Below are positions 3,496 through 18,360 of a stretch of DNA of 32,000 nt, piece after piece (position 1 is the first letter of the stretch; the number at the start of each line of letters is the position of its first letter). The notes beneath the pieces are model-generated. The model worked only from the letters and a program-made list of their open reading frames with translations. It ran no database searches and was not told the origin of the DNA. A program made the translations under genes and the position numbers. Origin of the DNA: Geobacter metallireducens GS-15 (GTDB taxonomy: Bacteria > Desulfobacterota > Desulfuromonadia > Geobacterales > Geobacteraceae); NCBI RefSeq assembly GCF_000012925.1, contig NC_007517.1:1020001-1052000 (forward strand), given 5' to 3'.

Positions 3496-4592
3496 TCGAT
3501 CGCAGACTTTTTACCAATTTCGACTGGACTCTCCTGGTGCTGGTGTTCCTCATCAGCGCCATGGGCATAGTCAATATCTACAGTGCGTCCGCTTCCTATA
3601 CCCTGGTGGGGGCACCCTATTACCTCAAGCAGTTCTACTGGATCGTTGCCGGCATGTTCCTGGTGGTGCTCGCCTGCAGTGTCGACTACCATCTGCTGGA
3701 GGACGTTACCTACTGGTTTTACGGGTTACTCTGCGTTGTGCTGGTTGCCGTCCTGCTGATGGGAAAGACATCCATGGGGGCCACTCGCTGGCTTCACCTC
3801 GGATTTTTCAGCATCCAACCATCCGAACCGATGAAGGTGGTCATGATTATGACCCTCGCACGGTTCCTTTCACGGTACCCGGCCGTCGACGGGTTAACCG
3901 TGCGGGATCTCGTCTATCCCCTGTTGTTCGTGGGGGGACCGGCAATCCTCATCATGAAGCAGCCCGACCTGGGCACTGCCATTGTCATAATTCTCATTGC
4001 CTGTTCCATGATTGCCTATGTAGGAGTCCGCTTGGCAACCCTCGTCGCCTGCCTTGCGGCAACCGTCCCCGCGATTTACCTGGGATGGCGCTATTACCTA
4101 CGTGATTACCAGAAAAACAGAATCCTCAACTTCCTCAATCCGGAACGCGATCCGCTCGGATCGGGCTACCATATCATCCAAAGCAAGATTGCAGTCGGTT
4201 CAGGGGGGATATTCGGCAAGGGGTTTACCCACGGGACCCAGACCCAGCTCCGTTTCCTCCCCGAACAGCACACCGATTTCGCATTCTCGGTTTTCGGCGA
4301 GGAGTGGGGGTTCATCGGGTGTCTGACGCTGCTGCTTCTCTACCTGTTCCTCATTTTCTGGGGACTCCACATTGCCGGCAGGTGTAACGACCGATTCGGC
4401 AGCCTTATGGCCGTCGGGGTGACGGCCATGCTCTTCTGGCATACCATCATCAATATCGGCATGGTAATCGGGGTATTCCCGGTTGTCGGCGTTCCCCTCC
4501 CGCTTTTCTCCTATGGCGGCACCTCAATGATCACCTCCATGATTGGTGTGGGAGTGCTGCTCAATATCAGCATGCGCAGGTTCATGTTCTAG
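3492..4592 (+). CDS. rodA: SEDS-family peptidoglycan glycosyltransferase RodA
   Basis: 366-aa multi-TM protein with FtsW/RodA/SpoVE signatures (PEQHTDFAFSVFGEEWGFIG, PLPLFSYGGTSM). It follows mrdA with an ATGA overlap. Confidence 0.92.
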   Translation: MIDRRLFTNFDWTLLVLVFLISAMGIVNIYSASASYTLVGAPYYLKQFYWIVAGMFLVVLACSVDYHLLEDVTYWFYGLLCVVLVAVLLMGKTSMGATRWLHLGFFSIQPSEPMKVVMIMTLARFLSRYPAVDGLTVRDLVYPLLFVGGPAILIMKQPDLGTAIVIILIACSMIAYVGVRLATLVACLAATVPAIYLGWRYYLRDYQKNRILNFLNPERDPLGSGYHIIQSKIAVGSGGIFGKGFTHGTQTQLRFLPEQHTDFAFSVFGEEWGFIGCLTLLLLYLFLIFWGLHIAGRCNDRFGSLMAVGVTAMLFWHTIINIGMVIGVFPVVGVPLPLFSYGGTSMITSMIGVGVLLNISMRRFMF

Positions 4593-4996
4593 TACTCTCC
4601 TCCCGGTAGACAGCCCCTCAAGCCTCGCATGAATGCATCTCCTGAGACCGTCGGGAACGGCGCTTTGATCAGTTTTCTGTTTGGGTCCGAAGGTTGCAAT
4701 TTAATTGGTAGTCTGTTGAAAAGACTACTGCCAGTGGGCCCGCTGGATAGAGGAAAAGCGCATGATTACAAAGGTTTTTTTGAGCAGCCTCCAGTTCTTT
4801 CGTGTGGTGCTCCGGCGAAGGGGTAAGCTATTTCACCGGATGTCCGGTTATTTGACGGTGGCTTAACGAGTGTTGCGTGGGTGGGAGCGTTACGACAATG
4901 AATGCGTTGTGGAAAAAATGAAGAAGTTTTGCCCTCTTACGAATGCGGCTCACATTGCTGTGTCAAAATGCCAACTTGAAGGGCAATAAAATTTAT

Positions 4997-5024
4997 TTGA
5001 TAATTGTGGCGGTGCCTATAGAAT
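4997..5024 (+). promoter_or_regulatory. Candidate sigma70-type promoter TTGATA-N16-TAGAAT upstream of the cytochrome gene
   Basis: TTGATA at 4997-5002 and TAGAAT at 5019-5024, with a 16-nt spacer, inside the AT-rich intergenic region. It is immediately preceded by the AT palindrome AATAAA-A-TTTATT (4985-4997). Pattern match only. Confidence 0.3.
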
Positions 5025-5043
5025 GCAGTATACAAAATCCGCC

Positions 5044-5071
5044 TTGACAAAACATTTCTGCACGTTAAAGT
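5044..5071 (+). promoter_or_regulatory. Candidate sigma70-type promoter TTGACA-N16-TAAAGT upstream of the cytochrome gene
   Basis: Consensus -35 TTGACA at 5044-5049, a 16-nt spacer, then TAAAGT at 5066-5071. It would give a 5' UTR of roughly 360 nt. Pattern match only. Confidence 0.3.
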
Positions 5072-5437
5072 AATTCACTTGGTTAGTGAGTGTTAATCAG
5101 TGGGGAGGACTTTTAGGGATTGACATGCTATTCAGTGCTCGGATGACTTCCTCCGAAATCTAGTGCTTCAGGATGGATATGACGAGCAATTCAGATGCAG
5201 AATATGAACGATTCTAAAACAGGGAATGCTTCGCAGATTTGAGTGATGTTTTTTGCTTTTTGGCTGGAAGGATAGGGCGCTACTTCATTCCCGGTTCATG
5301 AAATGTGATGGTTGATCGTGTAGGCAGGGTTTTCACAATCTTAACGCGAAGGAGGTGATGACAGGAGGTCTTTTGATTCAACTGTTGTCGTAAATGAAAA
5401 TTCTCTGCAGTTAATTACGCGAAAGGAGCAGAAAGGG

Positions 5438-6907
5438 ATGAAAAAGAAGATTTTGTTGAGCGCTGGGCTCGCAGTAACGGCAATTCTTGGTTTTGCCGCT
5501 GTCAACTGGGCTGTGGTACCCCCGCCGCCGGTTAACCAGAATGGAGGCATCTACGATACGACGTTTTCGGCGTTGACCCGTGCTGACTGTCTGCAGGCCG
5601 CCCCGTGTCACGTGAGTGATACGGTCGTGGTTCCCCGTCACCACAACCTGACACTGCCGCCGCGGCAGCTGAGCTGCTACGGCGACCCGACCGCCAACCC
5701 GGTTACCGGCTGCCACCAGCTGGTCCCCGACGGGGCGGGCGGATTCACCTTTGCTGATTTCCGGGATTGCCTCCGCTGCCACTCCAAGACTCCGCACCAT
5801 ATCACAACCCAAGCCCAGCAGCAGGACTGCAAGTTCTGCCACGGCAGCTTCATTGACAATCCGCTGGATGGCCATACCATCCCGACCTACGCCAAATCTT
5901 CGGTCACTCCCGAAACCAAGTGGCGCGGCAACAACCCCACCTCCCCGCAGAACTACGGCGGTTGCGCGGCATGCCACCAGGCTGCTGTAGCCTCCCCCAC
6001 CGTCGGACCGAAGGACATCAAGAGCAACGCCGATAACCACCACGGGACCGGCCTCGGTGCTCCGACTTCCACGACCGGCCAGCCGATCCAGGTCGGTGAC
6101 TGCACCTGGTGCCACGGCGGTGTGCCGGGCGACGTCAACTTCCTTGACATCCGGACCTGCGAGCGTTGCCATGGCATCAAGTCGCTCCACAACATTGAGA
6201 ACCCCTCCGGTGCCGGGCCTAACGGCTCCACGCTCGGAACCAACGTCGTCCCGGGTGCCATGCCGCTCGGTTACGGCCACATCGGCGCTGACTTCGATTG
6301 CTGGGGCTGCCACGGTACGTTCAAGAAGTATGCAACCGATCCGTCTCCGGCCGGTGCGGTTGTACCGTTCGTATCCGACCTGAGCACCAGGGTCCTCATC
6401 GCCAACCAGTCTAACGCACTCACCATCACTGGTGGCAGCTTCACCAACCAGAGCAACGGCGTAGACTTCACTTCATCCGTTACCCTTACCAATGGTTCGG
6501 TCACGGTCAATGTCCAGCCGACCTCCATTACCGTGAGCGAGATTCAGGTAAACATCCCGGCTCTTCCGGTCGGCACCTACGACCTGCTCGTGGTCAAGGG
6601 CGACAAGCAGAGCAACCTGACTCGCGTTGCCGTACTTCCGCTCCTCACCATCAAGTCGGCTTCGGTCAGCGGCGGCACGGTTACCATCACTGGTAGCGGC
6701 TTCGGTGATGCTCCTGCTACCGACGTGAACACCGGCCTTGGCCTCTTCGCCGCGGACGGCAGCCAGATCCCCGTTTCGTTCTGGGGTAATGGTAAGATTG
6801 TCGGTTCAAGCACTGCCGTCAAGGCAGGCAGCACCGTTACCGTGAAGACCCTTTACGGACCTACCAGCGCCCTCGTTACCGGCGCAGGCAAGAAGGCCAA
6901 GCGGTAA
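5438..6907 (+). CDS. omcZ: Secreted octaheme c-type cytochrome with two C-terminal IPT/TIG (Ig-like) domains; OmcZ-type nanowire subunit precursor
   Basis: AAAGGAG lies 9 nt upstream of the ATG. Signal peptide MKKKILLSAGLAVTAILGFAAVNWA. Six CxxCH motifs: C111, C131, C176, C222, C241, C288. Two CH-terminated non-canonical sites: C51-x5-C57-H58 and C80-x11-C92-H93. The heme-free C-terminal ~185 aa contain two IPT-like repeats (ALTITGGSFT..., GTVTITGSGFGD...). The gene symbol is assigned from this architecture plus the adjacent subtilisin gene, not from an alignment. Confidence 0.8.
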   Translation: MKKKILLSAGLAVTAILGFAAVNWAVVPPPPVNQNGGIYDTTFSALTRADCLQAAPCHVSDTVVVPRHHNLTLPPRQLSCYGDPTANPVTGCHQLVPDGAGGFTFADFRDCLRCHSKTPHHITTQAQQQDCKFCHGSFIDNPLDGHTIPTYAKSSVTPETKWRGNNPTSPQNYGGCAACHQAAVASPTVGPKDIKSNADNHHGTGLGAPTSTTGQPIQVGDCTWCHGGVPGDVNFLDIRTCERCHGIKSLHNIENPSGAGPNGSTLGTNVVPGAMPLGYGHIGADFDCWGCHGTFKKYATDPSPAGAVVPFVSDLSTRVLIANQSNALTITGGSFTNQSNGVDFTSSVTLTNGSVTVNVQPTSITVSEIQVNIPALPVGTYDLLVVKGDKQSNLTRVAVLPLLTIKSASVSGGTVTITGSGFGDAPATDVNTGLGLFAADGSQIPVSFWGNGKIVGSSTAVKAGSTVTVKTLYGPTSALVTGAGKKAKR

Positions 6908-6920
6908 TTTTTGATGTTCC

Positions 6921-6958
6921 GGGATAGGGGAGGGAGTTTCTCCCCTATCCCACTTTTT
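6921..6958 (+). terminator. Rho-independent terminator downstream of the cytochrome gene
   Basis: GGGATAGGGGA (6921-6931) pairs perfectly with TCCCCTATCCC (6941-6951) across a 9-nt loop. A T-run (TTTTT) follows at 6954-6958. It starts 14 nt after the stop codon. Confidence 0.85.
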
Positions 6959-6999
6959 ACCTGTTTACCGGCTGCTTCCCATTGATTAAGAGGTACACC

Positions 7000-8502
7000 A
7001 TGAACATACTACGCACCCTTCTTGTCGCTGTTATGGGGGCGATGCTTTGCTTACCACTTGATTCGTTTGCTGCCACGAAGAAGGTGATCGTCGGATTCAC
7101 TCGCGCGCCAAAAGATCATGAAAAAAATCTGGTGTATGGCGCAAGAGGCCGAATCCACCGGACTCACCAGCACATCCGTGCCATTTCCGCGGAACTTCCC
7201 GAGGAAGAGATAGCGCGTCTGAAGCAGGACCCTTCGGTTGCTTATGTTGTTGATAATATTAAATTTACTCTGATTCGACCGGCAGAGCCGCTCAGTGTCC
7301 CGTCACCCGAATATGTGGATTCGTGGGGTGTTCTGCGGATCGGCTCCAATGTTGCCGCCTCCCGTGGATATAAAGGGGCGGGAATCAAGGTCGCCATTGT
7401 TGACTCCGGAATTGACTACAACCATCCCGACCTCAAGGACAACTATCGGGGTGGATACAATTTTGTAAACAATACAGCAGATCCCTTTGACGACGATGCC
7501 CAGAGCCATGGAACCCATGTGGCGGGGATCATCGCGGCCCGGGACAACGGCACCGGCGTTGTCGGTGTGGCGCCGGAAGCATCCCTCTACGCGGTAAAGG
7601 TCTTCAGTGCCACCGCCGGGGGGGACATGGATACCGTCGTTGCCGGGATTGAGTGGGCCATTGACAACAAGATGGATGTGATCAACCTCAGCATCGGGTA
7701 TTCCGGCGACATCTATTCCATCTATCCCGACATTTTCAAGCCTCTCAAGGATGTCTGCGACCGGGCCTACCAGGCAGGCATCGTTCTGGTTGCGGCAACA
7801 GGAAACGACAACCGGGAAACTATTTCCGTTCCGGCGGCGTTCGATTCCGTCATTGCCGTTGCGGCCACTGACCAGAATGACCAGCGTGCCGTCTTTAACA
7901 CTGTCGCTGCATCCAGTTATGGTGCAAAAGTGGAACTGGCCGCGCCGGGCACCTATATCAAATCCACGGTCAGCGGTGGTGGATACGCACTCCTGAGCGG
8001 CACTTCCCAGGCCTCACCCCATGTTGCTGGAGCGGCTGCGGTTCTTCTTTCCAGCGGCATTGCCGACGCAAACGGTAACGGCAGTCGTGCCGACGAGGTA
8101 CGGGCAAGGCTGGACGCAACCGCCAAGGATTTGGGGGATCCAGGGCGTGACAAGTACTTCGGCTGGGGGTTGGTTGACCTTTCTGCGTCTACGGACCAGA
8201 CCTACAAGTTACATATCGAGAAGAAAAAAGGCATGCCGAAGCTCAGCACACAATCCATAACCCTCGACAAGGGGAGCTATTCGTTGCAGGTCAGGAATAA
8301 CGGCTTGGAGCGGCTGGCGGTAAAGTCTGTCGTTGGAAGCTGCAAGGAATTCGAGCGGGTCTTTGCCACCGGCTTCACATCTCCTCTTGAGGAACTGAAT
8401 GCCAGTGTGACTCTCGATGGCTCTCAAACGACGCTTGTTTTTACCCCGTCCGGTGACATTGGTTCCTCAGCTGACATCACCATCACGAAACTCGCCCGGT
8501 AA
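7000..8502 (+). CDS. ozpA: Secreted subtilisin-family (S8) serine protease with I9-like propeptide and a ~100-aa C-terminal extension; OzpA-like
   Basis: ATG at 7000 is preceded by AAGAGG with a 6-nt spacer; the ORF-track TTG at 6982 is an extension. Signal peptide MNILRTLLVAVMGAMLCLPLDSFA. Catalytic triad contexts VAIVDSGID (Asp), HGTHVAGIIAA (His) and SGTSQASPHVAGAAA (Ser), with oxyanion Asn in AATGND. The symbol is assigned by synteny with the OmcZ-like gene. Confidence 0.85.
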   Translation: MNILRTLLVAVMGAMLCLPLDSFAATKKVIVGFTRAPKDHEKNLVYGARGRIHRTHQHIRAISAELPEEEIARLKQDPSVAYVVDNIKFTLIRPAEPLSVPSPEYVDSWGVLRIGSNVAASRGYKGAGIKVAIVDSGIDYNHPDLKDNYRGGYNFVNNTADPFDDDAQSHGTHVAGIIAARDNGTGVVGVAPEASLYAVKVFSATAGGDMDTVVAGIEWAIDNKMDVINLSIGYSGDIYSIYPDIFKPLKDVCDRAYQAGIVLVAATGNDNRETISVPAAFDSVIAVAATDQNDQRAVFNTVAASSYGAKVELAAPGTYIKSTVSGGGYALLSGTSQASPHVAGAAAVLLSSGIADANGNGSRADEVRARLDATAKDLGDPGRDKYFGWGLVDLSASTDQTYKLHIEKKKGMPKLSTQSITLDKGSYSLQVRNNGLERLAVKSVVGSCKEFERVFATGFTSPLEELNASVTLDGSQTTLVFTPSGDIGSSADITITKLAR

Positions 8503-8523
8503 CGGGTGACGCATAGAGGAAAA

Positions 8524-9516
8524 ATGAGATTAAATCGTTCGCTAACATTTGGATTATTCCTTTTGGGAGTGATGTTCACTCTTCATCTGCTTCAGACGCC
8601 TGTCTCCGCGGATGAGGTGAATAAAACCGGGAAAGTAGTAGCCCGGGTCAATGGGGTTCCGATCTACGAGAATGCTTTGCAGTCGCACCTTGCCGCATTG
8701 GCTAATAAGGGAAGAGCTTCCGGATTCGCGCGTGATCCAGCAAAGATGAACGACTACCAAAAGAAAAAAGCACTCTATTCCCTCATTGATGCAGAACTGC
8801 TTCGCCAGGCAAGCAACCAGCAGCAAGTTACCGACCTTGACGCCAAGGTGAGCAAGCGGTTACAGGAAGTTAAAGGGAAGTTTCCCGACGAAGAGGCGTT
8901 TCTCAAAAATCTCCAGGCCAGAGGGAAGACCCTCGACATCTTTGTGGCTGAACTTCGGGACGGGATTCGCTACGACGAATATCTTACGAGCAAGAAGGTC
9001 ATTGGCGTTCCGGTTCCCGATGAGGAGATCCAGAAGTTCTACCGCGACAATCCGACGAGCTTCAGTGTTCCGGAGCAGATCAAGGTCAGACATATTCTGA
9101 TCGAGCCCGATGGTAGCACCGCTGAGGCTGTTGCCAAGGCCGAAAAGAAGGCCGGTGAAATCCGTAATCGGGTTGTCAGGGATAAGGACTTTGCCGCAGT
9201 TGCCAAGGAGGTATCGGCGTGCTCCACCGCTTCGTCCGGTGGGGATCTGGGCTATGTTTCGCGAGGAACCATGCCCGCTGAGTTCGATAAGGTCGCCTTT
9301 TCACTCAAGCTCAATGAGGTGAGCGAACCGGTCAGGACTAAATTTGGTTTCCACATTATGGAAGTTTTGGATAAAAAGCCGGTGACGGTACGGCCGTACT
9401 CGGAAGTTCGAGAGTTCATTTCCCGCTACCTGCAACGTTTCGACGATGAAAAACGTTTGAATGCACACACGCTGGAGTTGCGGAAGAAAGCAACCATCGA
9501 GGTTCTGCTCGATTGA
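8524..9516 (+). CDS. Exported SurA/PrsA-like peptidyl-prolyl cis-trans isomerase (single parvulin/PpiC domain)
   Basis: ATG at 8524 follows GAGGA; GTG at 8506 is an alternative start. N-terminal signal/anchor LTFGLFLLGVMFTLHLL. A SurA-N-like helical region precedes a parvulin domain (IKVRHILI...GGDLGYVSRGTMPAEFDKVAF...KFGFHIMEV). The gene starts only 21 nt after the protease stop. Confidence 0.88.
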   Translation: MRLNRSLTFGLFLLGVMFTLHLLQTPVSADEVNKTGKVVARVNGVPIYENALQSHLAALANKGRASGFARDPAKMNDYQKKKALYSLIDAELLRQASNQQQVTDLDAKVSKRLQEVKGKFPDEEAFLKNLQARGKTLDIFVAELRDGIRYDEYLTSKKVIGVPVPDEEIQKFYRDNPTSFSVPEQIKVRHILIEPDGSTAEAVAKAEKKAGEIRNRVVRDKDFAAVAKEVSACSTASSGGDLGYVSRGTMPAEFDKVAFSLKLNEVSEPVRTKFGFHIMEVLDKKPVTVRPYSEVREFISRYLQRFDDEKRLNAHTLELRKKATIEVLLD

Positions 9517-9620
9517 AAGGGTGTGCGGAACGCAGTACGGCACTAAACAAAGTCAGTCGTCTATAGTCGTATTTTTGTTCAAGCTTTTATTAGGAATTGA
9601 AAGGGAGAAGGTACTCGGTC

Positions 9621-12600
9621 ATGGGCATTGCTCGAAAAATCAAATGGGTATTCGTGACACTCTGCCTCCTGCTGGTAACGGCGCTCACCTCATCAGCCTA
9701 TGCTGCTGACTGGAACCTTACCAGTGGGAATTCAACGGTAACGCTTAATGACTCCGCAATGCCCGGAACTAGTCCCGGCGTTTATTCCTGGCTATTAGAC
9801 AACGTTGAACGGATAAGTCAGCAGGCGTTCTACTACAGGATCGGGACGACATCGCCCGAGGTCAGCGTGAGTGGTGACACTCTTGATGCCACTGCTCCTT
9901 TCACTGTTGCTGCCAGCAACCAGACCGCTTCCTCAGTAACCCTGACGTTTACCGAAAAAGCCGGAAGGTTCTCGATTGCCGTCACCTATGAGTTGATTGG
10001 CGGAACCACTGGTCGCTCGACGCTTAACAAGAAGGTGGTCGTTACCAACCTCACGGCGGCTCCTCTTGACCTCCATCTTTTCAGCTATTCGGATTACGAC
10101 CTCAAGACTGGCGCCTATAATTTCGAGAATGCCTCAATTGTCAACGGCAAGGCGTATCAGTCCAGTTTTACTAACACCACCGACACGGTCGGTAACGGGG
10201 CGACTTTTGTTGAACGTGCAACAGTGCCTCCCAGTCGCGTCGGTATCGATAACGCCCAGTTCCTGGGCTCCCTGGCAAACGGGGCCACACCATACAACCT
10301 CGACAATTTTTCCGGACCGTTCCCCTCCAATGGTGACTCCCAGTTCGCCTTCCAATGGGATCTGACCGTAGACCCCAAGACACCGACTTCATTTACGATT
10401 ACAGACGACTTTTACCCGACCAAGGCCCTCTATCTCTCAAAAGCCTCCACGCCCAGCACCTGTGTAAACTATGGTCAGACCTTCACGAACACCTATGCGT
10501 TTGACAACACACGAAACCTTGCCACTCCTGCCGATAACACCCTCATCAGAGAGAAGCTGGCCCGCGACATCTCTCTCTCGTTAGCGACCGACGGCGGGGC
10601 CTACAACGCGACAACCGGCTCCGTCGATTGGAAGATTCTCCAGATGGCGGCCGGTGCAGCGCAGCAGACGGTCCAGGGGACCTATACCGTCAACTCCGCC
10701 GCCGATTTCACAATGACGTCCCAGATAGTCAGCGACGAGACATTCCCCACGAGCGTGAGTGCCAAGCTGACTCTCTGTAATCACCCCCCTTCAATTTCTT
10801 CCTTTCCGGGCAAGAACGGCACCGAAGGCCAGGCATACAGTTACCAGGTGATAGCCACTGATTCCGACCCGGGGACCACGCTAAGCTACTCCCTTGATGT
10901 CGCTCCTGCCGGGATGACGATCAATTCAAGCGGCCTTATCACGTGGACTCCTACGTCTGCCCAGACCGGTAATAACACGATAACCGTCCGGGTGAGTGAT
11001 GGTACTCTGGCCGCTACCCAGACCTATACGCTCTTCATTGCCTATGTAAACGCCGCACCGTCCATCACCTCTTCTCCGGTGACGAGTGCTTACGTCGGGG
11101 TTTCCTATCCTTACACCGTGGTCGCAACCGACCCGAACCTCAAACAGGGTGACAAGCTCACCTTCGGATTGCCGGCTGCCCCCAGCGGGATGACCATTAA
11201 TTCGACCACCGGTGTTATTTCCTGGACACCGGATGCGACGCAGGTCGGCCCCCAGAATGTTGTCGTTCAAGTTACGGATAACGGCTATCTCTTCGTCCAA
11301 CAAAGCTTCACGGTAACCGTCAGCGCGACAACCAAGCAGACCCCTGTCATCACGTGGACAGCGCCTGCCGCGATCACCTACGGGACCGCGCTTGGCGTGA
11401 CGCAATTGAACGCCACAGCCAACGTCCCCGGCACCTACGCCTACACCCCGGCCTCCGGCGCCGTCCTTAACGCCGGGAGCCAGACCCTGTCGGTCACCTT
11501 CACGCCAACCGATACGACCACCTACACCACGGCCACCGCGACCACCACCCTCACGGTGAACAAGGCCACCCCGACCATTACGTGGGCGACGCCGGCCTCT
11601 GTTCCCGTCGGCACGGCGCTTTCCTCGACTCAACTGAACGCCACGGCCAGCACGGTCGGCAGCTTCACCTACACCCCAGTCTCCGGGACGGTGCTGACCA
11701 CCGCTGGAGTCCAGACGCTGTCCGCCACTTTCACCCCGACCGACACCACAAACTACAACGGCGCCTCAGCGAGTGTGAACCTCTCGGTAGTTGCCAAACA
11801 GGTACCGACCATCACGTGGGCAGCGCCTGCGGCGATCACCTACGGGACCGCGCTCAGCGCCGCGCAGCTGAACGCCACGGCCGGTGTCCCCGGCACCTAC
11901 ACCTACACCCCGGCCGTCGGCACGGTACTTAACGCCGGCACCCAGAGCCTGTCGGTCACCTTCACGCCGACCGATACGACCATCTACACCCCGGCTACCG
12001 CGACCGTCAGCCTCACGGTGAACAAGGCCAGCCAGACGGTCAGCTTCACCTCGACCATTCCGACGAGTCCCGCGTTTGGTGGCACCTACACCCCGGCAGC
12101 CACCGCGACCTCCGGGCTCGCCGTAGCCATCACCCTTGATGCCGCCAGCACCGGCTGCACACTCGCCTCCGGCGTAGTAACCTTCACCGGGGCCGGCACC
12201 TGCGTGATCGACGCCAACCAGGCAGGCACCACCAACTACAACGCCGCAGCCCAGGTACAGCAGAGCATCGGCATCGGCAAAGGCGCTTCGACCATAACCG
12301 TGACCGGCGCCACCAGCTTCACCTACACCGGCGCCCCGCAGGGTCCGGGCACTGCCACCGTGACCGGCTCGACCGGCGCGGTGACCTACAGCTACGCCGG
12401 GACCGGAACCACCACCTATCCCGCAAGCGCCACCAAACCGACCAATGCCGGTAGCTACACCGTAACCGCCACCGTAGCGGCTGACGCCAACTACAACGGC
12501 GCCTCCTCCTCCGCCACGGCATTCACCATCACCAAGGCCGCTGCCACCGTGACCCTCGGCAACCTTACCGCCACCTATGACGGCACTGCCAAGGCCGCTA

Positions 12601-15600
12601 CCGCTACCACCATCCCGAACGGGCTGACCGTGGCAATCACCTACGCCGGCGGCACCACCGCACCGACCGCGGCCGGTTCCTACGCCGTAGTTGCCACCGT
12701 TAACGACGCCAACTACACCGGCAGCGCTACGGGCACCCTGAACATCGCCAAGGCCAGCCAGACGGTCAGCTTCACCTCGACCATTCCGGCGAGTCCCGCG
12801 ATAGGCGGCACCTACACCCCGGCAGCAACCGCGACCTCCGGGCTCGCCGTAGCCATCACCCTTGATGCCGCCAGCACCGGCTGCACACTCGCCTCCGGCG
12901 TAGTGACCTTCACCGGGGCCGGCACCTGCGTGATCGACGCCAACCAGGCGGGCACCACCAACTACAACGCCGCAGCCCAGGTACAGCAGAGCATCGGCAT
13001 CGGCAAAGGCGCTTCGACCGTAACCGTGACCGGCGCCACCAGCTTCACCTACACCGGCGCCCCGCAGGGTCCGGGCACTGCCACCGTGACCGGCTCGACC
13101 GGCGCGGTGACCTACAGCTACGCCGGGACCGGAGCCACTACCTATCCCGCAAGCGCCACCAAACCGACCAATGCCGGTAGCTACACCGTAACCGCCACCG
13201 TAGCGGCTGACGCCAACTACAACGGCACCTCCTCCTCCGCCACGGCATTCACCATCACCAAGGCCGCTGCCACCGTGACCCTCGGCAACCTTACCGCCAC
13301 CTATGACGGCACTGCCAAGGCCGCTACCGCTACCACCATCCCGAACGGGCTGATCGTGGCTATCACCTACGCCGGCGGCACCACCGCACCGACCGCGGCC
13401 GGTTCCTACGCCGTAGTTGCCACCGTTAACGACGCCAACTACACCGGTAGCGCCACGGGTACCCTGGTTATTGCCAAGGCGACGTCTACCATCACTTGGG
13501 CCACGCCGACCGCCGTTCCCGTCGGCACTGCCCTCAGCAGCACCCAACTGAACGCCACAGCCAATACTGCCGGTACTTTCACCTACACCCCAGCTGCCGG
13601 GACGGTCATGAACACCGTCGGGACCCAGGCCCTGTCCGTCTCCTTTACACCGACAGACAGCACGAACTACACCAGCGCCACGGCGAGCGTGAGTCTCTCG
13701 GTAGTTGCCAAGCAGGTACCGACCATCACGTGGGCAGCGCCTGCGGCGATCGCCTATGGCACAGCCCTTGACGCCACCCAACTGAACGCTACCGCCAACG
13801 TAGCGGGTACCTTCGTCTACACTCCGGCCGCCGGCACCGTGCTTAACGCCGGCAGCCAGACCCTGTCGGTCACCTTCACGCCGACCGACACTGCCACGTA
13901 CACCACGGCCACCAAGACCGTCAGCCTCACGGTGAACAAGGCCAGCGCCACCATAACTCTCTCAGGGCTCAGCGCCACCTACGACGGCACCACCAAGGCC
14001 GCAACCGCCACAACCAGCCCTGCCGGAGTAGCAGTATCCCTAACCTATAAGAACGGTAAAACCACGGTAACCAGCCCGACAGCGGCAGGAAGCTACAGCG
14101 TAACCGCCACCGTCACCGACCCGAATTACACCGGTAGCGCCACGGGTACCCTGGTTATTGCCAAAGCGACGTCTACCATCACCTGGGCTACGCCGACTGC
14201 CGTTCCCGTCGGCACTGCCCTCAACGACACCCAACTGAACGCCACAGCCAATACTGCCGGCACCTTCAGCTACACCCCGGCTGCCGGGACGGTTGTGAAC
14301 ACAGCCGGGACCCAGACGCTGTCCGTCTCCTTCACGCCGACCGACAGCACGAACTACACCAGCGCCACAGCGAGCGTGAGCCTCTCGGTAGTTGCCAAGC
14401 AGGTACCGACCATCACGTGGGCAGCGCCTGCGGCGATCGCCTATGGCACAGCGCTTGACATCAATCAACTGAACGCCACGGCCAACGTTGCCGGTACCTT
14501 TGCCTATACCCCGGCCTCCGGCACCGTGCTTAACGCCGGCAGCCAGACCCTGTCGGTCACCTTCACGCCGACCGACACCGCCACGTACACCACGGCCACC
14601 AAGACCGTCACCCTGACGGTGAACCCGGCCAGCGCCACGGTAACCCTCGCAGGCCTTACCGCCACCTATGACGGCAGCGCCAAGGCCGTCACCGCTACCA
14701 CCAACCCTGCGGGCAAGGCCGTCACCATCACCTACGCCGGCAGCGCCACCGCGCCGACCGCAGCCGGTTCCTACGCCGTAGTTGCCACCGTCACCGACCC
14801 GAATTACACCGGTAGCGCCACGGGTACCCTGGTTATTGCCAAAGCGACGTCTACCATCACCTGGGCTACGCCGACTGCCGTTCCCGTCGGCACTGCCCTC
14901 AACGACACCCAACTGAACGCCACAGCCAATACTGCCGGCACCTTCAGCTACACCCCGGCTGCCGGGACGGTTGTGAACACAGCCGGGACCCAGACGCTGT
15001 CCGTCTCCTTCACGCCGACCGACAGCACGAACTACACCAGCGCCACAGCGAGCGTGAGCCTCTCGGTAGTTGCCAAGCAGGTACCGACCATCACGTGGGC
15101 AGCGCCTGCGGCGATCGCCTATGGCACAGCGCTTGACATCAATCAACTGAACGCCACGGCCAACGTTGCCGGTACCTTTGCCTATACCCCGGCCTCCGGC
15201 ACCGTGCTTAACGCCGGCAGCCAGACCCTGTCGGTCACCTTCACGCCGACCGACACCGCCACGTACACCACGGCCACCAAGACCGTCACCCTGACGGTGA
15301 ACCCGGCCAGCGCCACGGTAACCCTCGCAGGCCTTACCGCCACCTATGACGGCAGCGCCAAGGCCGTCACCGCTACCACCAACCCTGCGGGCAAGGCCGT
15401 CACCATCACCTACGCCGGCAGCGCCACCGCGCCGACCGCAGCCGGTTCCTACGCCGTAGTTGCCACCGTCACCGACGCCAACTACACCGGTAGCGCCACG
15501 GGTACCCTGGTTATTGCCAAAGCGACGTCTACCATCACCTGGGCCACGCCGACTGCCGTTCCCGTCGGCACTGCCCTCAACGACACCCAACTGAACGCCA

Positions 15601-17531
15601 CAGCCAATACTGCCGGCACCTTCAGCTACACCCCGGCTGCCGGGACGGTCATGAACACCGCCGGGACCCAGACACTGTCCGTCTCCTTCGTCCCGACCGA
15701 CCCCGTCAACTACAGCACGGCAACAGCAAGCGTTAACCTCACCGTGAACGCCGTTACCAAGCAAACTCCGGTAATTACCTGGGCAACGCCGGCGGCAGTG
15801 TCGGTTGGTACGACTCTCAGTAGCACTCAGCTCAATGCCACAGCCAACGTACCGGGCACCTTCACCTACATCCCGGCTGCCGGGACAGCCCTGAACACCG
15901 CCGGCACCGTAACTCTTTCCGCCACCTTCACGCCGACCGACACCGTAAACTACAACACGGCAACGGCGAGCGTTAACCTCACTGTGAACGCCGTTACCCA
16001 GCAGACTCCGGTCATTACCTGGGCAACACCGGCGGCAGTGTCTGAGGGTACGACCCTCGGCAGCACCCAACTCAACGCCACTGCCAACGTTCCGGGTACC
16101 TTCGCCTACACCCCGGCAGCCGGGACAGCCCTGAACACCGCCGGCACCGTAACTCTTTCCGCCACCTTCACGCCGACCGACACCGTCAACTACACCACGG
16201 CAACGGCGAGCGTGAGCCTCACCGTGAACGCCGTTATCACCAAGCAGCCCCCCGTGATCACATCGTCTCCGGTGACAACAGGATATAAGGACGGCTACTA
16301 CTACTATCAGGTAGTGGCTTCTGATCCGAATGGTGACACTGTCAGTTACTCGTTGAGCACCTATCCGTCGGGCATGACCATCAACTCGACGACGGGACTC
16401 ATTTACTGGCGTCCGGGGAGCACCGGCACCTATTCGGTAACGGTGAGAGCAAAGGACACAACTGGTCTTTACGCAAGCCAGAGCTTCAAGATTTCCGTAG
16501 CCGACAGCTCTTCCAACAGCTCGCCGAAGATCACCTCGACGGCTGTGACCACGGCAGTCGTTGATACTTTGTACAACTATGATGTGAATGCAACGGATTC
16601 CAATGGCGACACCGTGTACTTCAGGTTGTCATCGGCACCGTCAGGGATGACGATCGACGCGATAAGCGGTCTCATCAGCTGGACGCCGACTTCATCCCAG
16701 ACCGGCTCGAAATATGTGAGTGTCCAGGCGGTCGACAGCAAGGGAGGAAGAACGTCACAGAGCTTCTACATTACGGTGTCACAGTCCTCCAGTACCAATA
16801 ACGCACCGGTGATTTCTACCTCGCCGGTAACAACTGCCACCGTGGGACGTTCGTACTCCTATGATGTCAATGCAACTGACGCTGATGGGGATACTTTGAC
16901 CTACAAGCTGACCACCGCCCCCAGTGGCATGGGCATCGACGCAAACACCGGTGTCATTTCGTGGACTCCTTCGTCCTCACAGACCGGATCCAACAGTGTG
17001 ACGGTCGAGGTGACTGATGGCAAGGGAGGAAGCGACACCCAGAGCTTCACCGTATCGGTCACGGGGAGTACAACGAACAATGGGGCTCCTCAATTCACTT
17101 CCACTCCCGTGACCACTGCAGTTGTCAGGAAGTATTACACCTATAACGCTGACGCCGTTGATCCGAATGGCGACACTATTAAATATTCGTTCGCCAGAAG
17201 GCCTGACGGTATGTCGATCAATTCTTCCACGGGCTTGATCAACTGGTATGCCTCCCGAACCGGCTCCTACAATGTTTCGGTGAAGGCCACCGATTCGAAA
17301 GGGAATTCTGCATACCAGAATTTCACCATTACCGTTGTGACGGCAGATGTGTCAGCTATCCCCTTGTCCGTTAATTCGTGCGATGTCAACGGTGATGGTC
17401 TTGTAACCATCGATGATGTCAAGGCGATCATTGCCGGGAGGGGGACTAACAACCTCACTCTCGATATGGACGGTGATGGTGCCGTGACGTTGCTGGATGC
17501 GCGCATTTGCTCCCCTCAAGTGAAGAACTGA
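9621..17531 (+). CDS. Giant (2,636 aa) secreted Thr/Ala-rich repeat protein: unique N-terminal domain, cadherin-like domains, about 21 Ig/MBG-like modules, C-terminal dockerin
   Basis: ATG at 9621; the ORF-track TTG at 9597 is an extension. Signal peptide MGIARKIKWVFVTLCLLLVTALTSSAYA. A single uninterrupted ORF. Module types read from the translation: (a) cadherin-like/He_PIG-like (SPVT...Y.Y.V.A.D.[ND]GD...SGM.I[ND]S.TGLI.WTP); (b) about 80-aa modules P.ITW..P..(I/V).YGTAL...QLNATA..GTF.YTP...TLSV.FTPTD..NY; (c) MBG-like modules (L.ATYDG.AKA...ITY.G...APT.AGSY.V.ATV.D.NYTGSATGTL.IAKA); (d) SQTVSFTS...C...C modules; (e) dockerin. Confidence 0.9.
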   Translation: MGIARKIKWVFVTLCLLLVTALTSSAYAADWNLTSGNSTVTLNDSAMPGTSPGVYSWLLDNVERISQQAFYYRIGTTSPEVSVSGDTLDATAPFTVAASNQTASSVTLTFTEKAGRFSIAVTYELIGGTTGRSTLNKKVVVTNLTAAPLDLHLFSYSDYDLKTGAYNFENASIVNGKAYQSSFTNTTDTVGNGATFVERATVPPSRVGIDNAQFLGSLANGATPYNLDNFSGPFPSNGDSQFAFQWDLTVDPKTPTSFTITDDFYPTKALYLSKASTPSTCVNYGQTFTNTYAFDNTRNLATPADNTLIREKLARDISLSLATDGGAYNATTGSVDWKILQMAAGAAQQTVQGTYTVNSAADFTMTSQIVSDETFPTSVSAKLTLCNHPPSISSFPGKNGTEGQAYSYQVIATDSDPGTTLSYSLDVAPAGMTINSSGLITWTPTSAQTGNNTITVRVSDGTLAATQTYTLFIAYVNAAPSITSSPVTSAYVGVSYPYTVVATDPNLKQGDKLTFGLPAAPSGMTINSTTGVISWTPDATQVGPQNVVVQVTDNGYLFVQQSFTVTVSATTKQTPVITWTAPAAITYGTALGVTQLNATANVPGTYAYTPASGAVLNAGSQTLSVTFTPTDTTTYTTATATTTLTVNKATPTITWATPASVPVGTALSSTQLNATASTVGSFTYTPVSGTVLTTAGVQTLSATFTPTDTTNYNGASASVNLSVVAKQVPTITWAAPAAITYGTALSAAQLNATAGVPGTYTYTPAVGTVLNAGTQSLSVTFTPTDTTIYTPATATVSLTVNKASQTVSFTSTIPTSPAFGGTYTPAATATSGLAVAITLDAASTGCTLASGVVTFTGAGTCVIDANQAGTTNYNAAAQVQQSIGIGKGASTITVTGATSFTYTGAPQGPGTATVTGSTGAVTYSYAGTGTTTYPASATKPTNAGSYTVTATVAADANYNGASSSATAFTITKAAATVTLGNLTATYDGTAKAATATTIPNGLTVAITYAGGTTAPTAAGSYAVVATVNDANYTGSATGTLNIAKASQTVSFTSTIPASPAIGGTYTPAATATSGLAVAITLDAASTGCTLASGVVTFTGAGTCVIDANQAGTTNYNAAAQVQQSIGIGKGASTVTVTGATSFTYTGAPQGPGTATVTGSTGAVTYSYAGTGATTYPASATKPTNAGSYTVTATVAADANYNGTSSSATAFTITKAAATVTLGNLTATYDGTAKAATATTIPNGLIVAITYAGGTTAPTAAGSYAVVATVNDANYTGSATGTLVIAKATSTITWATPTAVPVGTALSSTQLNATANTAGTFTYTPAAGTVMNTVGTQALSVSFTPTDSTNYTSATASVSLSVVAKQVPTITWAAPAAIAYGTALDATQLNATANVAGTFVYTPAAGTVLNAGSQTLSVTFTPTDTATYTTATKTVSLTVNKASATITLSGLSATYDGTTKAATATTSPAGVAVSLTYKNGKTTVTSPTAAGSYSVTATVTDPNYTGSATGTLVIAKATSTITWATPTAVPVGTALNDTQLNATANTAGTFSYTPAAGTVVNTAGTQTLSVSFTPTDSTNYTSATASVSLSVVAKQVPTITWAAPAAIAYGTALDINQLNATANVAGTFAYTPASGTVLNAGSQTLSVTFTPTDTATYTTATKTVTLTVNPASATVTLAGLTATYDGSAKAVTATTNPAGKAVTITYAGSATAPTAAGSYAVVATVTDPNYTGSATGTLVIAKATSTITWATPTAVPVGTALNDTQLNATANTAGTFSYTPAAGTVVNTAGTQTLSVSFTPTDSTNYTSATASVSLSVVAKQVPTITWAAPAAIAYGTALDINQLNATANVAGTFAYTPASGTVLNAGSQTLSVTFTPTDTATYTTATKTVTLTVNPASATVTLAGLTATYDGSAKAVTATTNPAGKAVTITYAGSATAPTAAGSYAVVATVTDANYTGSATGTLVIAKATSTITWATPTAVPVGTALNDTQLNATANTAGTFSYTPAAGTVMNTAGTQTLSVSFVPTDPVNYSTATASVNLTVNAVTKQTPVITWATPAAVSVGTTLSSTQLNATANVPGTFTYIPAAGTALNTAGTVTLSATFTPTDTVNYNTATASVNLTVNAVTQQTPVITWATPAAVSEGTTLGSTQLNATANVPGTFAYTPAAGTALNTAGTVTLSATFTPTDTVNYTTATASVSLTVNAVITKQPPVITSSPVTTGYKDGYYYYQVVASDPNGDTVSYSLSTYPSGMTINSTTGLIYWRPGSTGTYSVTVRAKDTTGLYASQSFKISVADSSSNSSPKITSTAVTTAVVDTLYNYDVNATDSNGDTVYFRLSSAPSGMTIDAISGLISWTPTSSQTGSKYVSVQAVDSKGGRTSQSFYITVSQSSSTNNAPVISTSPVTTATVGRSYSYDVNATDADGDTLTYKLTTAPSGMGIDANTGVISWTPSSSQTGSNSVTVEVTDGKGGSDTQSFTVSVTGSTTNNGAPQFTSTPVTTAVVRKYYTYNADAVDPNGDTIKYSFARRPDGMSINSSTGLINWYASRTGSYNVSVKATDSKGNSAYQNFTITVVTADVSAIPLSVNSCDVNGDGLVTIDDVKAIIAGRGTNNLTLDMDGDGAVTLLDARICSPQVKN
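10785..11325 (+). other. Two N-proximal cadherin-like (He_PIG-type) domains of the giant protein
   Basis: PPSISSFPGKNGTEGQAYSYQVIATDSDPGTTLSYSLDVAPAGMTINSSGLITWTP... and APSITSSPVTSAYVGVSYPYTVVATDPN...PSGMTINSTTGVISWTP... Confidence 0.6.
12026..13477 (+). repeat. Tandem in-frame duplication, 2 x 726 bp (242 codons), near-identical
   Basis: GGCCAGCCAGACGGTCAGCTTCACC starts at both 12026 and 12752. A by-eye comparison of the two units shows only about a dozen substitutions (for example ccgacgagt/ccggcgagt, tttggtggc/ataggcggc). Each unit encodes one SQTVSF module plus two MBG-like modules. Confidence 0.9.
13424..15690 (+). repeat. Tandem in-frame array of about 680-bp units (687 + 678 + 678 + about 220 bp partial); units 2 and 3 are identical
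   Basis: Unit starts are at 13424, 14111, 14789 and 15467. By line-by-line comparison, 14111-14798 appears base-for-base identical to 14789-15476. Unit 1 has a 9-bp insertion and scattered changes. Unit 4 diverges after about 15690. Each unit encodes two ITW modules plus one MBG-like module. Confidence 0.9.
15747..16226 (+). repeat. Tandem in-frame duplication, 2 x 240 bp (80 codons), diverged
   Basis: AACGCCGTTACC(A/C)AGCA(A/G)ACTCCGGT(A/C)ATTACCTGGGCAAC starts at 15747 and 15987, and a third junction lies at 16227. Protein units: VTKQTPVITWATPAAVSVGTTL... and VTQQTPVITWATPAAVSEGTTL... Confidence 0.85.
16248..17340 (+). other. Four C-proximal cadherin-like (He_PIG-type) domains of the giant protein
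   Basis: PPVITSSPVTTGYKDGYYYYQVVASDPNGD..., SPKITSTAVTTAVVDTLYNYDVNATDSNGD..., APVISTSPVTTATVGRSYSYDVNATDADGD..., APQFTSTPVTTAVVRKYYTYNADAVDPNGD.... Each is followed by SGM(T/G/S)I(N/D)..TG(L/V)I.W. Confidence 0.65.
17379..17510 (+). other. C-terminal type-I-like dockerin module (two Ca-binding EF-hand-like loops)
   Basis: CDVNGDGLVTIDDVKAIIAGRGTNNLTLDMDGDGAVTLLDARIC. It contains two D.[ND]GDG.V...D loops about 24 residues apart, bracketed by Cys residues, at the extreme C-terminus. Confidence 0.75.
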
Positions 17532-17575
17532 GGATATGATGCTGTAAGCAAAGCTGTGATTTCGTATGATGAACG

Positions 17576-17612
17576 ACGGGGAGGTGTCGCGGACGCCTCC
17601 CCGTTTCTTTTT
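17576..17612 (+). terminator. Rho-independent terminator of the giant gene
   Basis: ACGGGGAGG (17576-17584) pairs with CCTCCCCGT (17596-17604) across an 11-nt loop, followed by TTCTTTTT (17605-17612). It begins 45 nt after the stop codon. Confidence 0.85.
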
Positions 17613-17646
17613 GCCGCAACCCTTGAGGGCGCATTGGTATTCACGG

Positions 17647-17706: not shown

Positions 17707-18360
17707 TTGAAGGCTTCCCTGGTTCGCCGTGTCTGGGTTACATTCTCTGCCCATGTAATCGGTTTCTATGCATCCACTCTCAACAGGTTCCGGGTTAAAG
17801 GGATTGAAAACCTGCCGAAGGATGGTGGGGTGCTGATCGCCTCCAACCACATCTCGGCCTATGAAACCATTTTCATTCCCTGGGCCGTGTTGCGTCACTA
17901 TCCCCTGCAGATGGTCTGGGCTCCCGCCAAGGAAGAGCTTTTCACCAGCCGTCTTCAGCAGTGGCTCTACAGTTCGTGGGGGGCGTTTCCGGTCAAGCGG
18001 GGGCGCGACATCCGCGCCGGTAAGGTCATCAATGATCTTCTCCTGACCGAAAAGGTGATGCTCTTCCCCGAGGGGACCCGCCATAAGGACGGGGTTCTCG
18101 GCCCTGGCAACCGGGGTGTGGGCAAGATTATCTACGACACGCGCCCCACGGTCGTGCCGACGGCCCTCGTGGGCCTCAATCGCTGGAAGTTCCCCGGTGT
18201 AGGCCAGGATGCCGCCATCGTATTCGGAAAACCTCTCGATTTTGCAGACCTGTATGGCCGCGAAGACAACAAGGAAACTCACCAGTTGATTGTCGGGCGT
18301 GTCATGACAGCCATAGCTGATCTTCTGAAGACGGAAGGGGCCTATGTCAACAAGGGTTGA
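17707..18360 (+). CDS. 1-acyl-sn-glycerol-3-phosphate acyltransferase family protein (PlsC-like)
   Basis: Acyltransferase motifs NHISAYE (H-x4-D/E block) and FPEGTR. The ORF-track start at 17566 would place the terminator hairpin (17576-17612) inside the gene. TTG at 17707 is preceded by AGAGG with a 5-nt spacer and is the first plausible in-frame start downstream of the terminator. Confidence 0.7.

Follow-up and report, generated by a model that had tools for sequence, protein, structure and literature searches.

We analysed a window of 32,000 nucleotides (nt) of the Geobacter metallireducens GS-15 chromosome (NC_007517.1, positions 1,020,001 to 1,052,000), which carries a four-gene locus built around a homologue of the cytochrome gene omcZ. 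To our knowledge, OmcZ filaments are the most conductive protein nanowires described. They are required for the thick, high-current anode biofilms of Geobacter. We present evidence, drawn from sequence comparison, that the omcZ locus has been exchanged as a cassette among Geobacter relatives, and that the giant secreted protein encoded by its last gene (gene 4), of the type of GSU2073 in G. sulfurreducens, is a fourth and Geobacterales-specific member of that cassette.

Organization of the locus

The locus (window positions 5438-17531) consists of four open reading frames (ORFs) on the plus strand between rodA and an acyltransferase gene, plsC (Table 1). The upstream neighbours are mreC, mreD, mrdA (PBP2) and rodA, and the acyltransferase gene on the downstream side is followed by genes for RNase H, a HAD hydrolase, PFK, MgsA and glycogen phosphorylase. 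Each of the four proteins starts with a Sec-type signal peptide, recognized from the sequence itself by its basic n-region, hydrophobic core and AxA-type site. The gaps are 92 nt between genes 1 and 2, 21 nt between genes 2 and 3, and 104 nt between genes 3 and 4, and ribosome-binding sites are present at the junctions (GAGGA ahead of gene 3). An initial annotation of this DNA had described four consecutive same-strand genes with signal peptides between mreCD-mrdA-rodA and housekeeping genes, with a 21-nt gap between the protease and isomerase genes, an AT-rich leader on the left and a strong terminator on the right. The ORFs and neighbours were as described, the gap measured exactly 21 nt, and both the leader (45% GC) and the terminator (hairpin with a folding free energy, dG, of -26 kcal/mol) were found. 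A further strong hairpin, at 6921-6951 between the omcZ and protease genes, had escaped that annotation.

For comparison, an OmcZ profile built from 12 sequences was scanned against one genome per species, which yielded 60 loci. The retrieved loci were numbered from L001 upward and screened by tblastn with the window proteins; the query for the N-terminal head of gene 4 was its first 400 amino acids (aa).

Table 1. Coordinates of the genes and other features of the omcZ locus (window numbering; Ig, immunoglobulin; PPIase, peptidyl-prolyl isomerase)
Feature	Position	Strand	Description
Leader/promoter region	4593-5437	+	845 nt, AT-rich, intergenic, 5' of omcZ
Gene 1, omcZ homologue	5438-6907	+	489-aa precursor: signal peptide, octaheme domain (see text for the heme count), IPT/TIG Ig-like C-terminal part
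Heme site 1	5588-5611		CLQAAPCH (CX5CH)
Heme site 2	5675-5716		CX11CH
GC-rich hairpin and T-run between omcZ and ozpA	6921-6960 (hairpin 6921-6951)	+	13-14 bp stem, dG -24.2, tail ACTTTTTAC
Gene 2, ozpA homologue	7000-8502	+	ATG start, 500 aa, secreted subtilisin
Gene 3, SurA-N and parvulin PPIase	8524-9516	+	ATG start, 330 aa
Gene 4, giant secreted repeat protein	9621-17531	+	ATG start, 2,636 aa, positional homologue of GSU2073
Head subdomain 1 of gene 4	9705-10400	+	No Pfam model; motifs F/WYRxG, LDxHLFxYSDxD, DxQFxxQWD
Head subdomain 2 of gene 4	10400-10790	+	DUF11/InlJ_IG-like beta-sandwich, ends in conserved LCNHPP linker
Repeat core of gene 4	11300-16250	+	Recent intragenic duplications, direct repeats
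3' end of gene 4	17094-17531	+	Last He_PIG part and dockerin-like tail, staying with the conserved right flank
Intrinsic terminator at the end of the module	17575-17614 (hairpin/T-run 17575-17605)	+	Hairpin and T-run, 14-bp stem, 9 GC pairs, dG -26.2, tail TCTTTTTG

Comparison with the omcZ operon of G. sulfurreducens

On the G. sulfurreducens chromosome AP017912.1, mrdA and rodA are followed by a 50-aa ORF and by genes for OmcZ (473 aa), an S8 protease (485 aa), a PPIase (327 aa) and a 1,824-aa He_PIG/Big_9 protein; the acyltransferase, RNase H, HAD, PFK, MgsA and phosphorylase genes come next. The site (rodA to acyltransferase-rnhA), the gene order, the strand and the domain architectures are common to both species. 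In strain PCA, GSU2071 is rnhA, GSU2072 is the acyltransferase gene, GSU2078 is rodA and GSU2079 is mrdA (supplement of Chan et al. 2017, PMC5585712). From these tags of the flanking genes, genes 1 to 4 are the counterparts of GSU2076, GSU2075, GSU2074 and GSU2073, respectively. By homology and synteny, the window locus is thus orthologous to GSU2076-GSU2073. The identities to G. sulfurreducens are 46% for OmcZ, 49% for OzpA (full length, to the gene adjoining omcZ), 35% for the PPIase and 45% for the head of gene 4, versus 75-92% for the flanking genes. This low identity of the module against the high identity of the flanks indicates that the cassette type differs from that of G. sulfurreducens. 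Gene 4 differs in length as well, with 2,636 aa here versus 1,824 aa there.

In phmmer searches, the gene 1 product aligned end to end (residues 1-489) with the solved G. sulfurreducens OmcZ structure 8d9m_A (E=3e-114) and also matched the OmcZs filament chain 7lq5_A (E=2e-68). Its C-terminal Ig-like part matches Pfam TIG over residues 310-392 (22.3 bits, cut-off 20.9), and the alignment to 8d9m reaches the last residue. Gene 1, whose architecture the initial annotation had likened to that of OmcZ, is by this similarity the gene of an OmcZ precursor. The term octaheme used for it holds with a qualification: eight heme sites with the spacings 5, 11, 2, 2, 2, 2, 2 and 2 can be counted, but only if a CX5CH and a CX11CH site are included beside six canonical CXXCH sites. 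The G. sulfurreducens protein has CXXCH (CLECH) at the first of these two sites and CX14CH at the second. The spacing pattern of the window protein was found in 14 of 109 OmcZ cluster representatives, and 73 of the 109 were canonical throughout. The Cys and His residues of the heme sites are invariant across 33 diverse OmcZ homologues, together with H68, H69, H120, H121, H201, H202, H251 and H281; the invariant residues include the distal His. We describe the window gene as belonging to a new OmcZ allele class, defined by its CX5CH and CX11CH sites. In the region of the OzpA cleavage site, KKYATDPSPAG aligns to WFGNSSPYTN of G. sulfurreducens OmcZ; the position is kept, but the sequence, including the cleavage motif FGNSS, is not conserved.

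The gene 2 product matches Peptidase_S8 (2.2e-60), and its residues 25-397 align to pro-subtilisin E 3whi_A (1.5e-69). The motifs of the D/H/S catalytic triad are intact (VDSGID, HGTHVAG and GTSQASPHVAG). An I9-type propeptide is weakly recognized (Inhibitor_I9, 20.5 bits, just under the cut-off of 21.2), and an additional beta domain of about 100 aa lies at the C-terminus. In nearly all loci of bacteria and archaea, an S8 gene comes after omcZ. Homology and synteny identify the gene 2 product as an OzpA-type subtilisin, the predicted maturation protease, in agreement with the match to OzpA proposed earlier. Some OzpA homologues carry additional C-terminal modules. The one of L018/L067 (3789-4307) ends in a copy of the OmcZ TIG domains, 43% identical to OmcZ residues 316-488, and those of L012 and L025 (both at about 12900-13200) have a He_PIG domain like those of gene 4. 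These additional modules are hints, from domain composition, that protease, substrate and giant protein might share a docking mode.

The gene 3 product matches Rotamase (5.9e-28) and SurA_N_3 (4.1e-12), and the position of the PPIase gene after omcZ-S8 is kept in 17 bacterial loci outside Geobacterales. By homology and synteny, gene 3 is the SurA-like parvulin of the omcZ operon.

Much is known of the G. sulfurreducens counterparts. omcZ shares a transcript with GSU2075, both being induced on anodes (PMC2680965), and the 50-kDa OmcZ precursor is converted to the 30-kDa filament subunit by the G. sulfurreducens enzyme OzpA (10.1101/2022.07.17.500359; PMC12307469; 10.64898/2026.07.18.739370). 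GSU2074 was assigned to the "omcZ operon", and insertions in it caused a strong electrode-growth defect in transposon sequencing (Chan et al. 2017, PMC5585712). The set of OmcZ, peptidase and isomerase has been described as the complete gene cluster that nanowire assembly requires, and as one that Methanoperedens and Borgs have conserved (10.1101/2023.08.01.549754). In a 2026 preprint, a "three gene operon" expressed in Shewanella and E. coli gave nanowires, and deletion of the isomerase gene in Shewanella lowered OmcZ, which was linked to the 20% cis-prolines in the structure (10.64898/2026.07.18.739370). Given the electrode-growth defect and the effect of the isomerase deletion, the PPIase can no longer be said, as it was in the initial annotation, to lack an assigned role. 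Three of the four parts are already characterized in G. sulfurreducens, and the whole layout exists there.

Exchange of the four genes as one cassette

We compared the divergence of the module with that of its flanks. Overall, close relatives have flanking genes that are 80-95% identical and omcZ cassettes that are 35-60% identical. Between the window and L012, the flanks are 85-90% identical, versus 54, 61, 36 and 37% for OmcZ, OzpA, PPIase and the gene 4 head, respectively. Between L007 and L021 the flanks are 90-94% identical, and the corresponding module values are 54, 53, 33 and 43%. Among ten rodA-flanked loci, the pairwise-identity matrices of OmcZ, OzpA, PPIase and gene 4 head correlated strongly among themselves (r=0.91-0.97) and weakly with those of mrdA and rodA (r=0.24-0.45), whereas mrdA and rodA correlated with each other at r=0.91. 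Across 26 non-redundant loci, the gene 4 head co-diverged with OmcZ at r=0.86, compared with 0.88 for OzpA and 0.88 for the PPIase (Mantel p<=0.001).

The breakpoints were sought by blastn comparison of the window with L066, L012, L069, L011 and L085. The DNA similarity to L066 (82%) ends at the rodA stop codon (4592-4600) and resumes (81%) at window position 17094, within the last ~145 codons of gene 4, from where it continues through plsC. Nucleotide similarity to relatives with a cassette of another type likewise breaks off at the end of rodA, which places the leader within the exchanged segment. According to the breakpoints, this segment runs from the leader through omcZ, ozpA and the PPIase gene into gene 4, of which it leaves out the tail. 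The dockerin-like tail of gene 4 was found only in loci at the rodA-plsC site (the window, L008, L066 and G. sulfurreducens), consistent with a breakpoint inside the 3' end of the gene. These alignments show that recombination among lineages of Geobacter replaces the omcZ locus.

We found the four-gene unit in at least three genomic contexts. The first is the site between rodA and plsC; the second comprises islands of large multiheme cytochromes (L010, L013, L014, L017 and L025), and in the third the unit lies between CNNM/YhdP genes and a glycosyltransferase gene (L016 and L027). In L015, L068 and L073, the gene order is omcZ-ozpA-gene 4-PPIase, with gene 4 inside the accepted operon.

These patterns could arise if gene 4 were a hitch-hiker between the first three genes and the plsC flank, co-inherited without a functional link. 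Both breakpoints at the rodA-plsC site lie in conserved DNA (the rodA stop; the gene 4 3' end and plsC), which alone would explain the discordance with the flanks. Moreover, any sequence between the conserved flanks is co-transferred anyway, so part of the co-divergence at this site may be physical hitch-hiking. However, the unit is kept together in at least two contexts without rodA and plsC (the multiheme-cytochrome islands and the CNNM/YhdP-glycosyltransferase setting), and these contexts, together with the altered gene order in L015, L068 and L073, argue against mere physical linkage. The gap before gene 4 is also short, 14-104 nt in most loci, and the window has no terminator-like site in the interval that separates gene 4 from the PPIase gene. 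Hence we regard a passive hitch-hiker as improbable. Gene order and sequence divergence show instead that gene 4 is inherited, rearranged and horizontally exchanged with genes 1-3 as one Geobacterales cassette.

Distribution of the cassette

The omcZ-S8-PPIase triad was found in Geobacterales and in 17 loci from Desulfobulbales/other Thermodesulfobacteriota, Nitrospirota and sulfur-oxidizing Gammaproteobacteria. The retrieved loci of ANME-2/Methanosarcinales (ANME, anaerobic methanotrophic archaea) had omcZ-S8 with no parvulin match. In Geobacterales, the head of gene 4 was encoded directly 3' of the triad in 18 of the 19 loci with enough downstream DNA, at 30-73% identity. With a profile of the gene 4 head, a reciprocal scan of metagenome contigs retrieved 20 loci. 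Ten of these had a full-length head match and enough upstream DNA, and every one of the ten contained omcZ-S8-PPIase; two truncated loci showed the PPIase (and S8). A typical Geobacterales four-gene module (L018, JBAYZR010000180.1) came from a metagenome-assembled genome (MAG) labelled Pedobacter sp.; it is identical to metagenome contig L067, and the contig was probably mis-binned.

Other bacterial and ANME/Methanoperedens/Borg clusters (Chadwick 2022; Gu 2023; Schoelmerich 2023; Ouboter 2024) share with the window a common core, namely an OmcZ-like octaheme cytochrome gene followed by an S8 protease gene. The bacterial omcZ-ozpA clusters outside Geobacterales also have a SurA-like parvulin, as here, but carry other cytochromes or unrelated repeat proteins in place of gene 4. 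The repeat proteins encoded after the omcZ-protease(-PPIase) genes include an InlB B-repeat protein of 1,112 aa in Nitrospirota (L049, 17973-21311), a protein with five PKD domains in Thiodiazotropha (L042, 7351-9570) and a Kelch repeat protein (L056, 15327-16754). An ANME-2 archaeon (L028, 13724-15154) encodes a NosD-like beta-helix protein with a Dockerin_1 match above threshold. Such proteins in other phyla may be non-homologous stand-ins for gene 4, or may be there by coincidence.

Architecture of gene 4 and kinship of its head

The gene 4 product consists of a signal peptide, a domain of ~215 aa, a DUF11-like beta-sandwich, two He_PIG domains, about 20 MBG/Ig-like repeats, four He_PIG domains and a dockerin-like tail. 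The Pfam matches are seven MBG_3 and six He_PIG, and Thr and Ala together make up 36% of the residues. We considered whether the protein carries heme. With no CXXCH motif and nine Cys in 2,636 residues, gene 4 was rejected as a cytochrome or heme carrier.

The repeat core contains direct DNA repeats of 240-300 nt with up to 96% identity, spaced 678, 687 or 726 nt apart. In L001 and L005, which are short-read assemblies of close relatives, the contigs end inside gene 4. Near-identical duplications of this kind break public assemblies, so that the database copies of gene 4 are mostly fragments. Word-indexed protein searches with the head, either as a single sequence or as a 17-sequence profile, gave 4-5 matches only, which we attribute to the giant proteins being largely fragmented or swamped by repeat words.

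Two calcium-loop motifs of the form DxNGDG/DxDGDG, DVNGDGLVTIDD and DMDGDGAVTLLD, lie in the last 60 residues. The tail scored 18.4 bits against Pfam Dockerin_1 (E=0.0025), under the cut-off of 22.9. The initial annotation had called the protein dockerin-tailed; the pair of calcium loops is visible, but the score falls short of a Pfam assignment, and we refer to the tail as dockerin-like. No cohesin domain was among the domain calls within the 32-kb window. Homologues of gene 4 range from 1,119 to >2,385 aa and differ in their tails.

The head of about 360 aa is 45% identical to that of the G. sulfurreducens protein and 30-77% identical to those of 25 other loci. Among 17 homologues, its second subdomain matched DUF11 in eight (best 4e-10) and InlJ_IG in nine. 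We searched 1.84 billion representatives exhaustively with HMMER, using the head as query. The number of matching proteins was 1,137 at an E-value below 1e-3, 373 below 1e-10 and 23 below 1e-30. The full-length matches were giant Geobacterales proteins, including those of G. pickeringii, G. sulfurreducens, Geotalea uraniireducens and Geobacter sp. M21. Most of the 373 were proteins of 265-300 aa, hundreds in number, which align with subdomain 1 only (30-42% identity, E 1e-14 to 1e-20) and have a PEP-CTERM or VPLPA-CTERM sorting tag at the C-terminus. The motifs QQWFWYRxG, LDFHFFQYSDFD and DxTWAFQWD are common to these small proteins and gene 4; unlike them, gene 4 lacks a PEP-CTERM tag and is ten times longer.

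Gene 4 itself matched no NCBIfam model and had no PEP-CTERM match. It ends in the dockerin-like tail and has the N-terminal domain alone in common with the small proteins; it was therefore rejected as a PEP-CTERM/exosortase-sorted protein. The PepA model (flocculation-associated, NF033554) was touched by 22 of 40 small head homologues, and many other PEP-CTERM family models were matched equally. A kinship of the head with PepA is thus weakly indicated, as the matches are weak and partly due to the common sorting tag. Exosortase-sorted proteins are known companions of exopolysaccharide matrices. In Zoogloea, floc formation is reported to require both exopolysaccharide and PEP-CTERM proteins (PMC9012009).

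Proposed role of gene 4

We consider it likely that the locus is an orthologue of the omcZ operon in which gene 4, dispensable for assembly, serves as a tether in the extracellular matrix. By analogy with the G. sulfurreducens proteins, the OmcZ precursor would be exported by Sec and receive eight hemes, the isomerase would help it to fold, and OzpA would cut it between the heme domain and the Ig-like C-terminal part; the short form would then polymerize into conductive filaments. The gene 4 product would be a flexible extracellular tether of ~30 Ig-like domains, roughly 100 nm long. Its head, which resembles exosortase-sorted matrix proteins, and its calcium-binding tail would position OmcZ filaments or cells, and the protein would in this way keep the filaments, or the cells that produce them, within the polysaccharide matrix of the conductive biofilm.

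Several findings weigh against this role, in addition to the possible hitch-hiking at the rodA-plsC site. Since Shewanella and E. coli form nanowires with the three-gene operon alone, gene 4 is no assembly factor and, by analogy, would be dispensable for filament formation. GSU2073 is mentioned in no paper of the literature searched. Gene 4 is absent from the Geobacterales locus L019, which has multiheme cytochromes instead, and no homologue was found in any of the 17 non-Geobacterales bacterial loci or in the archaeal loci retrieved; its role is thus not universal. Gene 4-like proteins also occur beside other surface proteins without omcZ in L071/L072 and probably in L075. AlphaFold models of the head reached a mean confidence (predicted local distance difference test, pLDDT) of 33 without an alignment and 65 with a 7-sequence alignment; even in this poor model, subdomain 1 stayed at 35-84 and only the DUF11-like part came to ~90. 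A Foldseek search of the head model against PDB found generic beta-sandwiches only (template-modelling score, TM, <= 0.35; root-mean-square deviation 8-10 A or worse), and the head profile had zero matches among PDB sequences even at E<=10. Given the poor model and the unspecific fold search, no binding function can be read from the structure.

The initial annotation had assigned the giant protein to the module and had proposed a neighbourhood comparison across the family. In this comparison, the giant gene and the PPIase gene accompany omcZ within Geobacterales, but the giant gene does so nowhere outside. Its membership of the module is thereby supported as a linkage within Geobacterales, and the anchoring or scaffolding suggested for it is a putative function.

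Gene 4 could instead be a general biofilm adhesin or matrix protein that is co-regulated with OmcZ, as both would serve life on electrodes and minerals, and has no physical or specific relation to the filaments. Its architecture is that of a generic adhesin. The long Ig-like arrays, the Thr/Ala-rich composition, the recent duplications and the calcium-loop pair resemble those of giant Ig-repeat adhesins (MBG, He_PIG, Big_9) and of non-cellulosomal dockerin proteins. The paralogues beside other surface proteins in L072 and L075 and the sufficiency of three genes for nanowires fit this explanation, as do the unrelated InlB-B, PKD, Kelch and beta-helix-dockerin proteins in the same position elsewhere, which suggest a generic theme. 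Unlike such adhesins, however, the gene 4 family has its own head domain and a fixed position after the omcZ triad. The head co-diverges with OmcZ as tightly as do the two proven partners, and in one lineage gene 4 is embedded between ozpA and the PPIase gene. Furthermore, a general adhesin would be expected to stay in place during a cassette swap; instead, all but the last ~145 codons were replaced along with omcZ. We hold the general-adhesin explanation as a tentative one, rather less probable than a matrix tether.

A more specific possibility is that gene 4 is a dedicated, co-adapted partner of OmcZ, whose head binds the filaments or the cleaved Ig-like prodomain and whose stalk and calcium-binding tail tie the filaments to the cell surface or to matrix polysaccharide. 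At present we think this unlikely. If it were true, the cassette of Geobacterales would be a "wired matrix" of four components with alleles that move together in exchange, and the nanowires made by the three-gene operon in Shewanella, which are unconnected to metabolism, would be explained.

The route by which OmcZ leaves the Geobacter cell has been called unknown in a review (PMC12307469). In the native host, gene 4 might help OmcZ to be exported or displayed at the surface; it could, for instance, guide the precursor or the protease across or onto the outer membrane, a step that heterologous hosts would bypass. The OzpA homologues with gene 4-like He_PIG (L012 and L025) or OmcZ-type TIG domains (L018) hint at a common docking partner. 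Yet this 2,636-aa repeat protein has a plain Sec signal, lacks an outer-membrane beta-barrel or secretin-like domain and so does not resemble secretion machinery, and gene 4 is absent from most triad-bearing bacteria. An export aid is the least probable of these explanations, and a matrix tether remains the role that we favour.

Leader, hairpin and terminator

The leader has a GC content of 0.452, versus 0.603 for the window as a whole, and contains three sigma-70-like hexamer pairs (4976-5004, 4997-5024 and 5044-5071). An Rfam scan of the whole window, leader included, gave zero family matches, indicating that the long leader contains no known riboswitch.

Hairpins comparable to the one after omcZ, with -22 to -30 kcal/mol, lie 15-55 nt past the omcZ stop codon in most related loci (L005-L010, L015, L016, L018-L021, L025, L031, L035 and L044). 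The stem sequences differ among lineages, and a good T-run is missing in some copies. The element is probably a partial terminator/attenuator or an mRNA-stabilizing stem, as judged from its predicted fold and position, and it probably sets the output of OmcZ above that of the downstream accessory genes.

At the right end of the module, the listed acyltransferase ORF starts at 17566 and overlaps the terminator hairpin. Since the alignment to the 217-aa G. sulfurreducens protein begins at residue 48, the real start lies near 17707.

Variation of the module in other lineages

In L006 (14100-15300) and at the same place in L009, a gene for a 400-aa multiheme cytochrome is inserted between the PPIase gene and gene 4. 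The N-terminal part of this cytochrome resembles OmcZ residues 45-188 (44% identity). In L010 (4231-9775) and L013 (4575-9777), a multiheme cytochrome of ~1,400-1,800 aa and a ~250-aa ORF without a Pfam match precede omcZ on the same strand; L014, L025 and L017 have the same upstream arrangement. The Desulfobulbales-type loci have a heptaheme cytochrome gene after the PPIase gene, and in L031-L035 and L040 (~9050-9720) a secreted ORF of ~210-230 aa lies directly 5' of omcZ. The module may be larger in the lineages with such upstream cytochrome or secreted ORFs.

Tandem or additional omcZ paralogues were seen in L049, L039, L042 and L062, and in L026 versus L012. In L049 (Nitrospirota), four omcZ genes in a row (4831-14393) precede just one protease-PPIase pair. 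In one Geobacter MAG, a second omcZ stands alone; the ~800 nt of contig after it gave no protease match.

Implications

Genes 1-3 add one more allele to a known operon; two of its heme-attachment motifs are unusual. The main lead is gene 4, which is present in the model organism as GSU2073 and is co-inherited with omcZ as tightly as are the protease and the isomerase; it may bear on how the nanowires are anchored and connected to cells. In addition, close Geobacter relatives can carry very different OmcZ systems, which matters when electroactivity is inferred from taxonomy.

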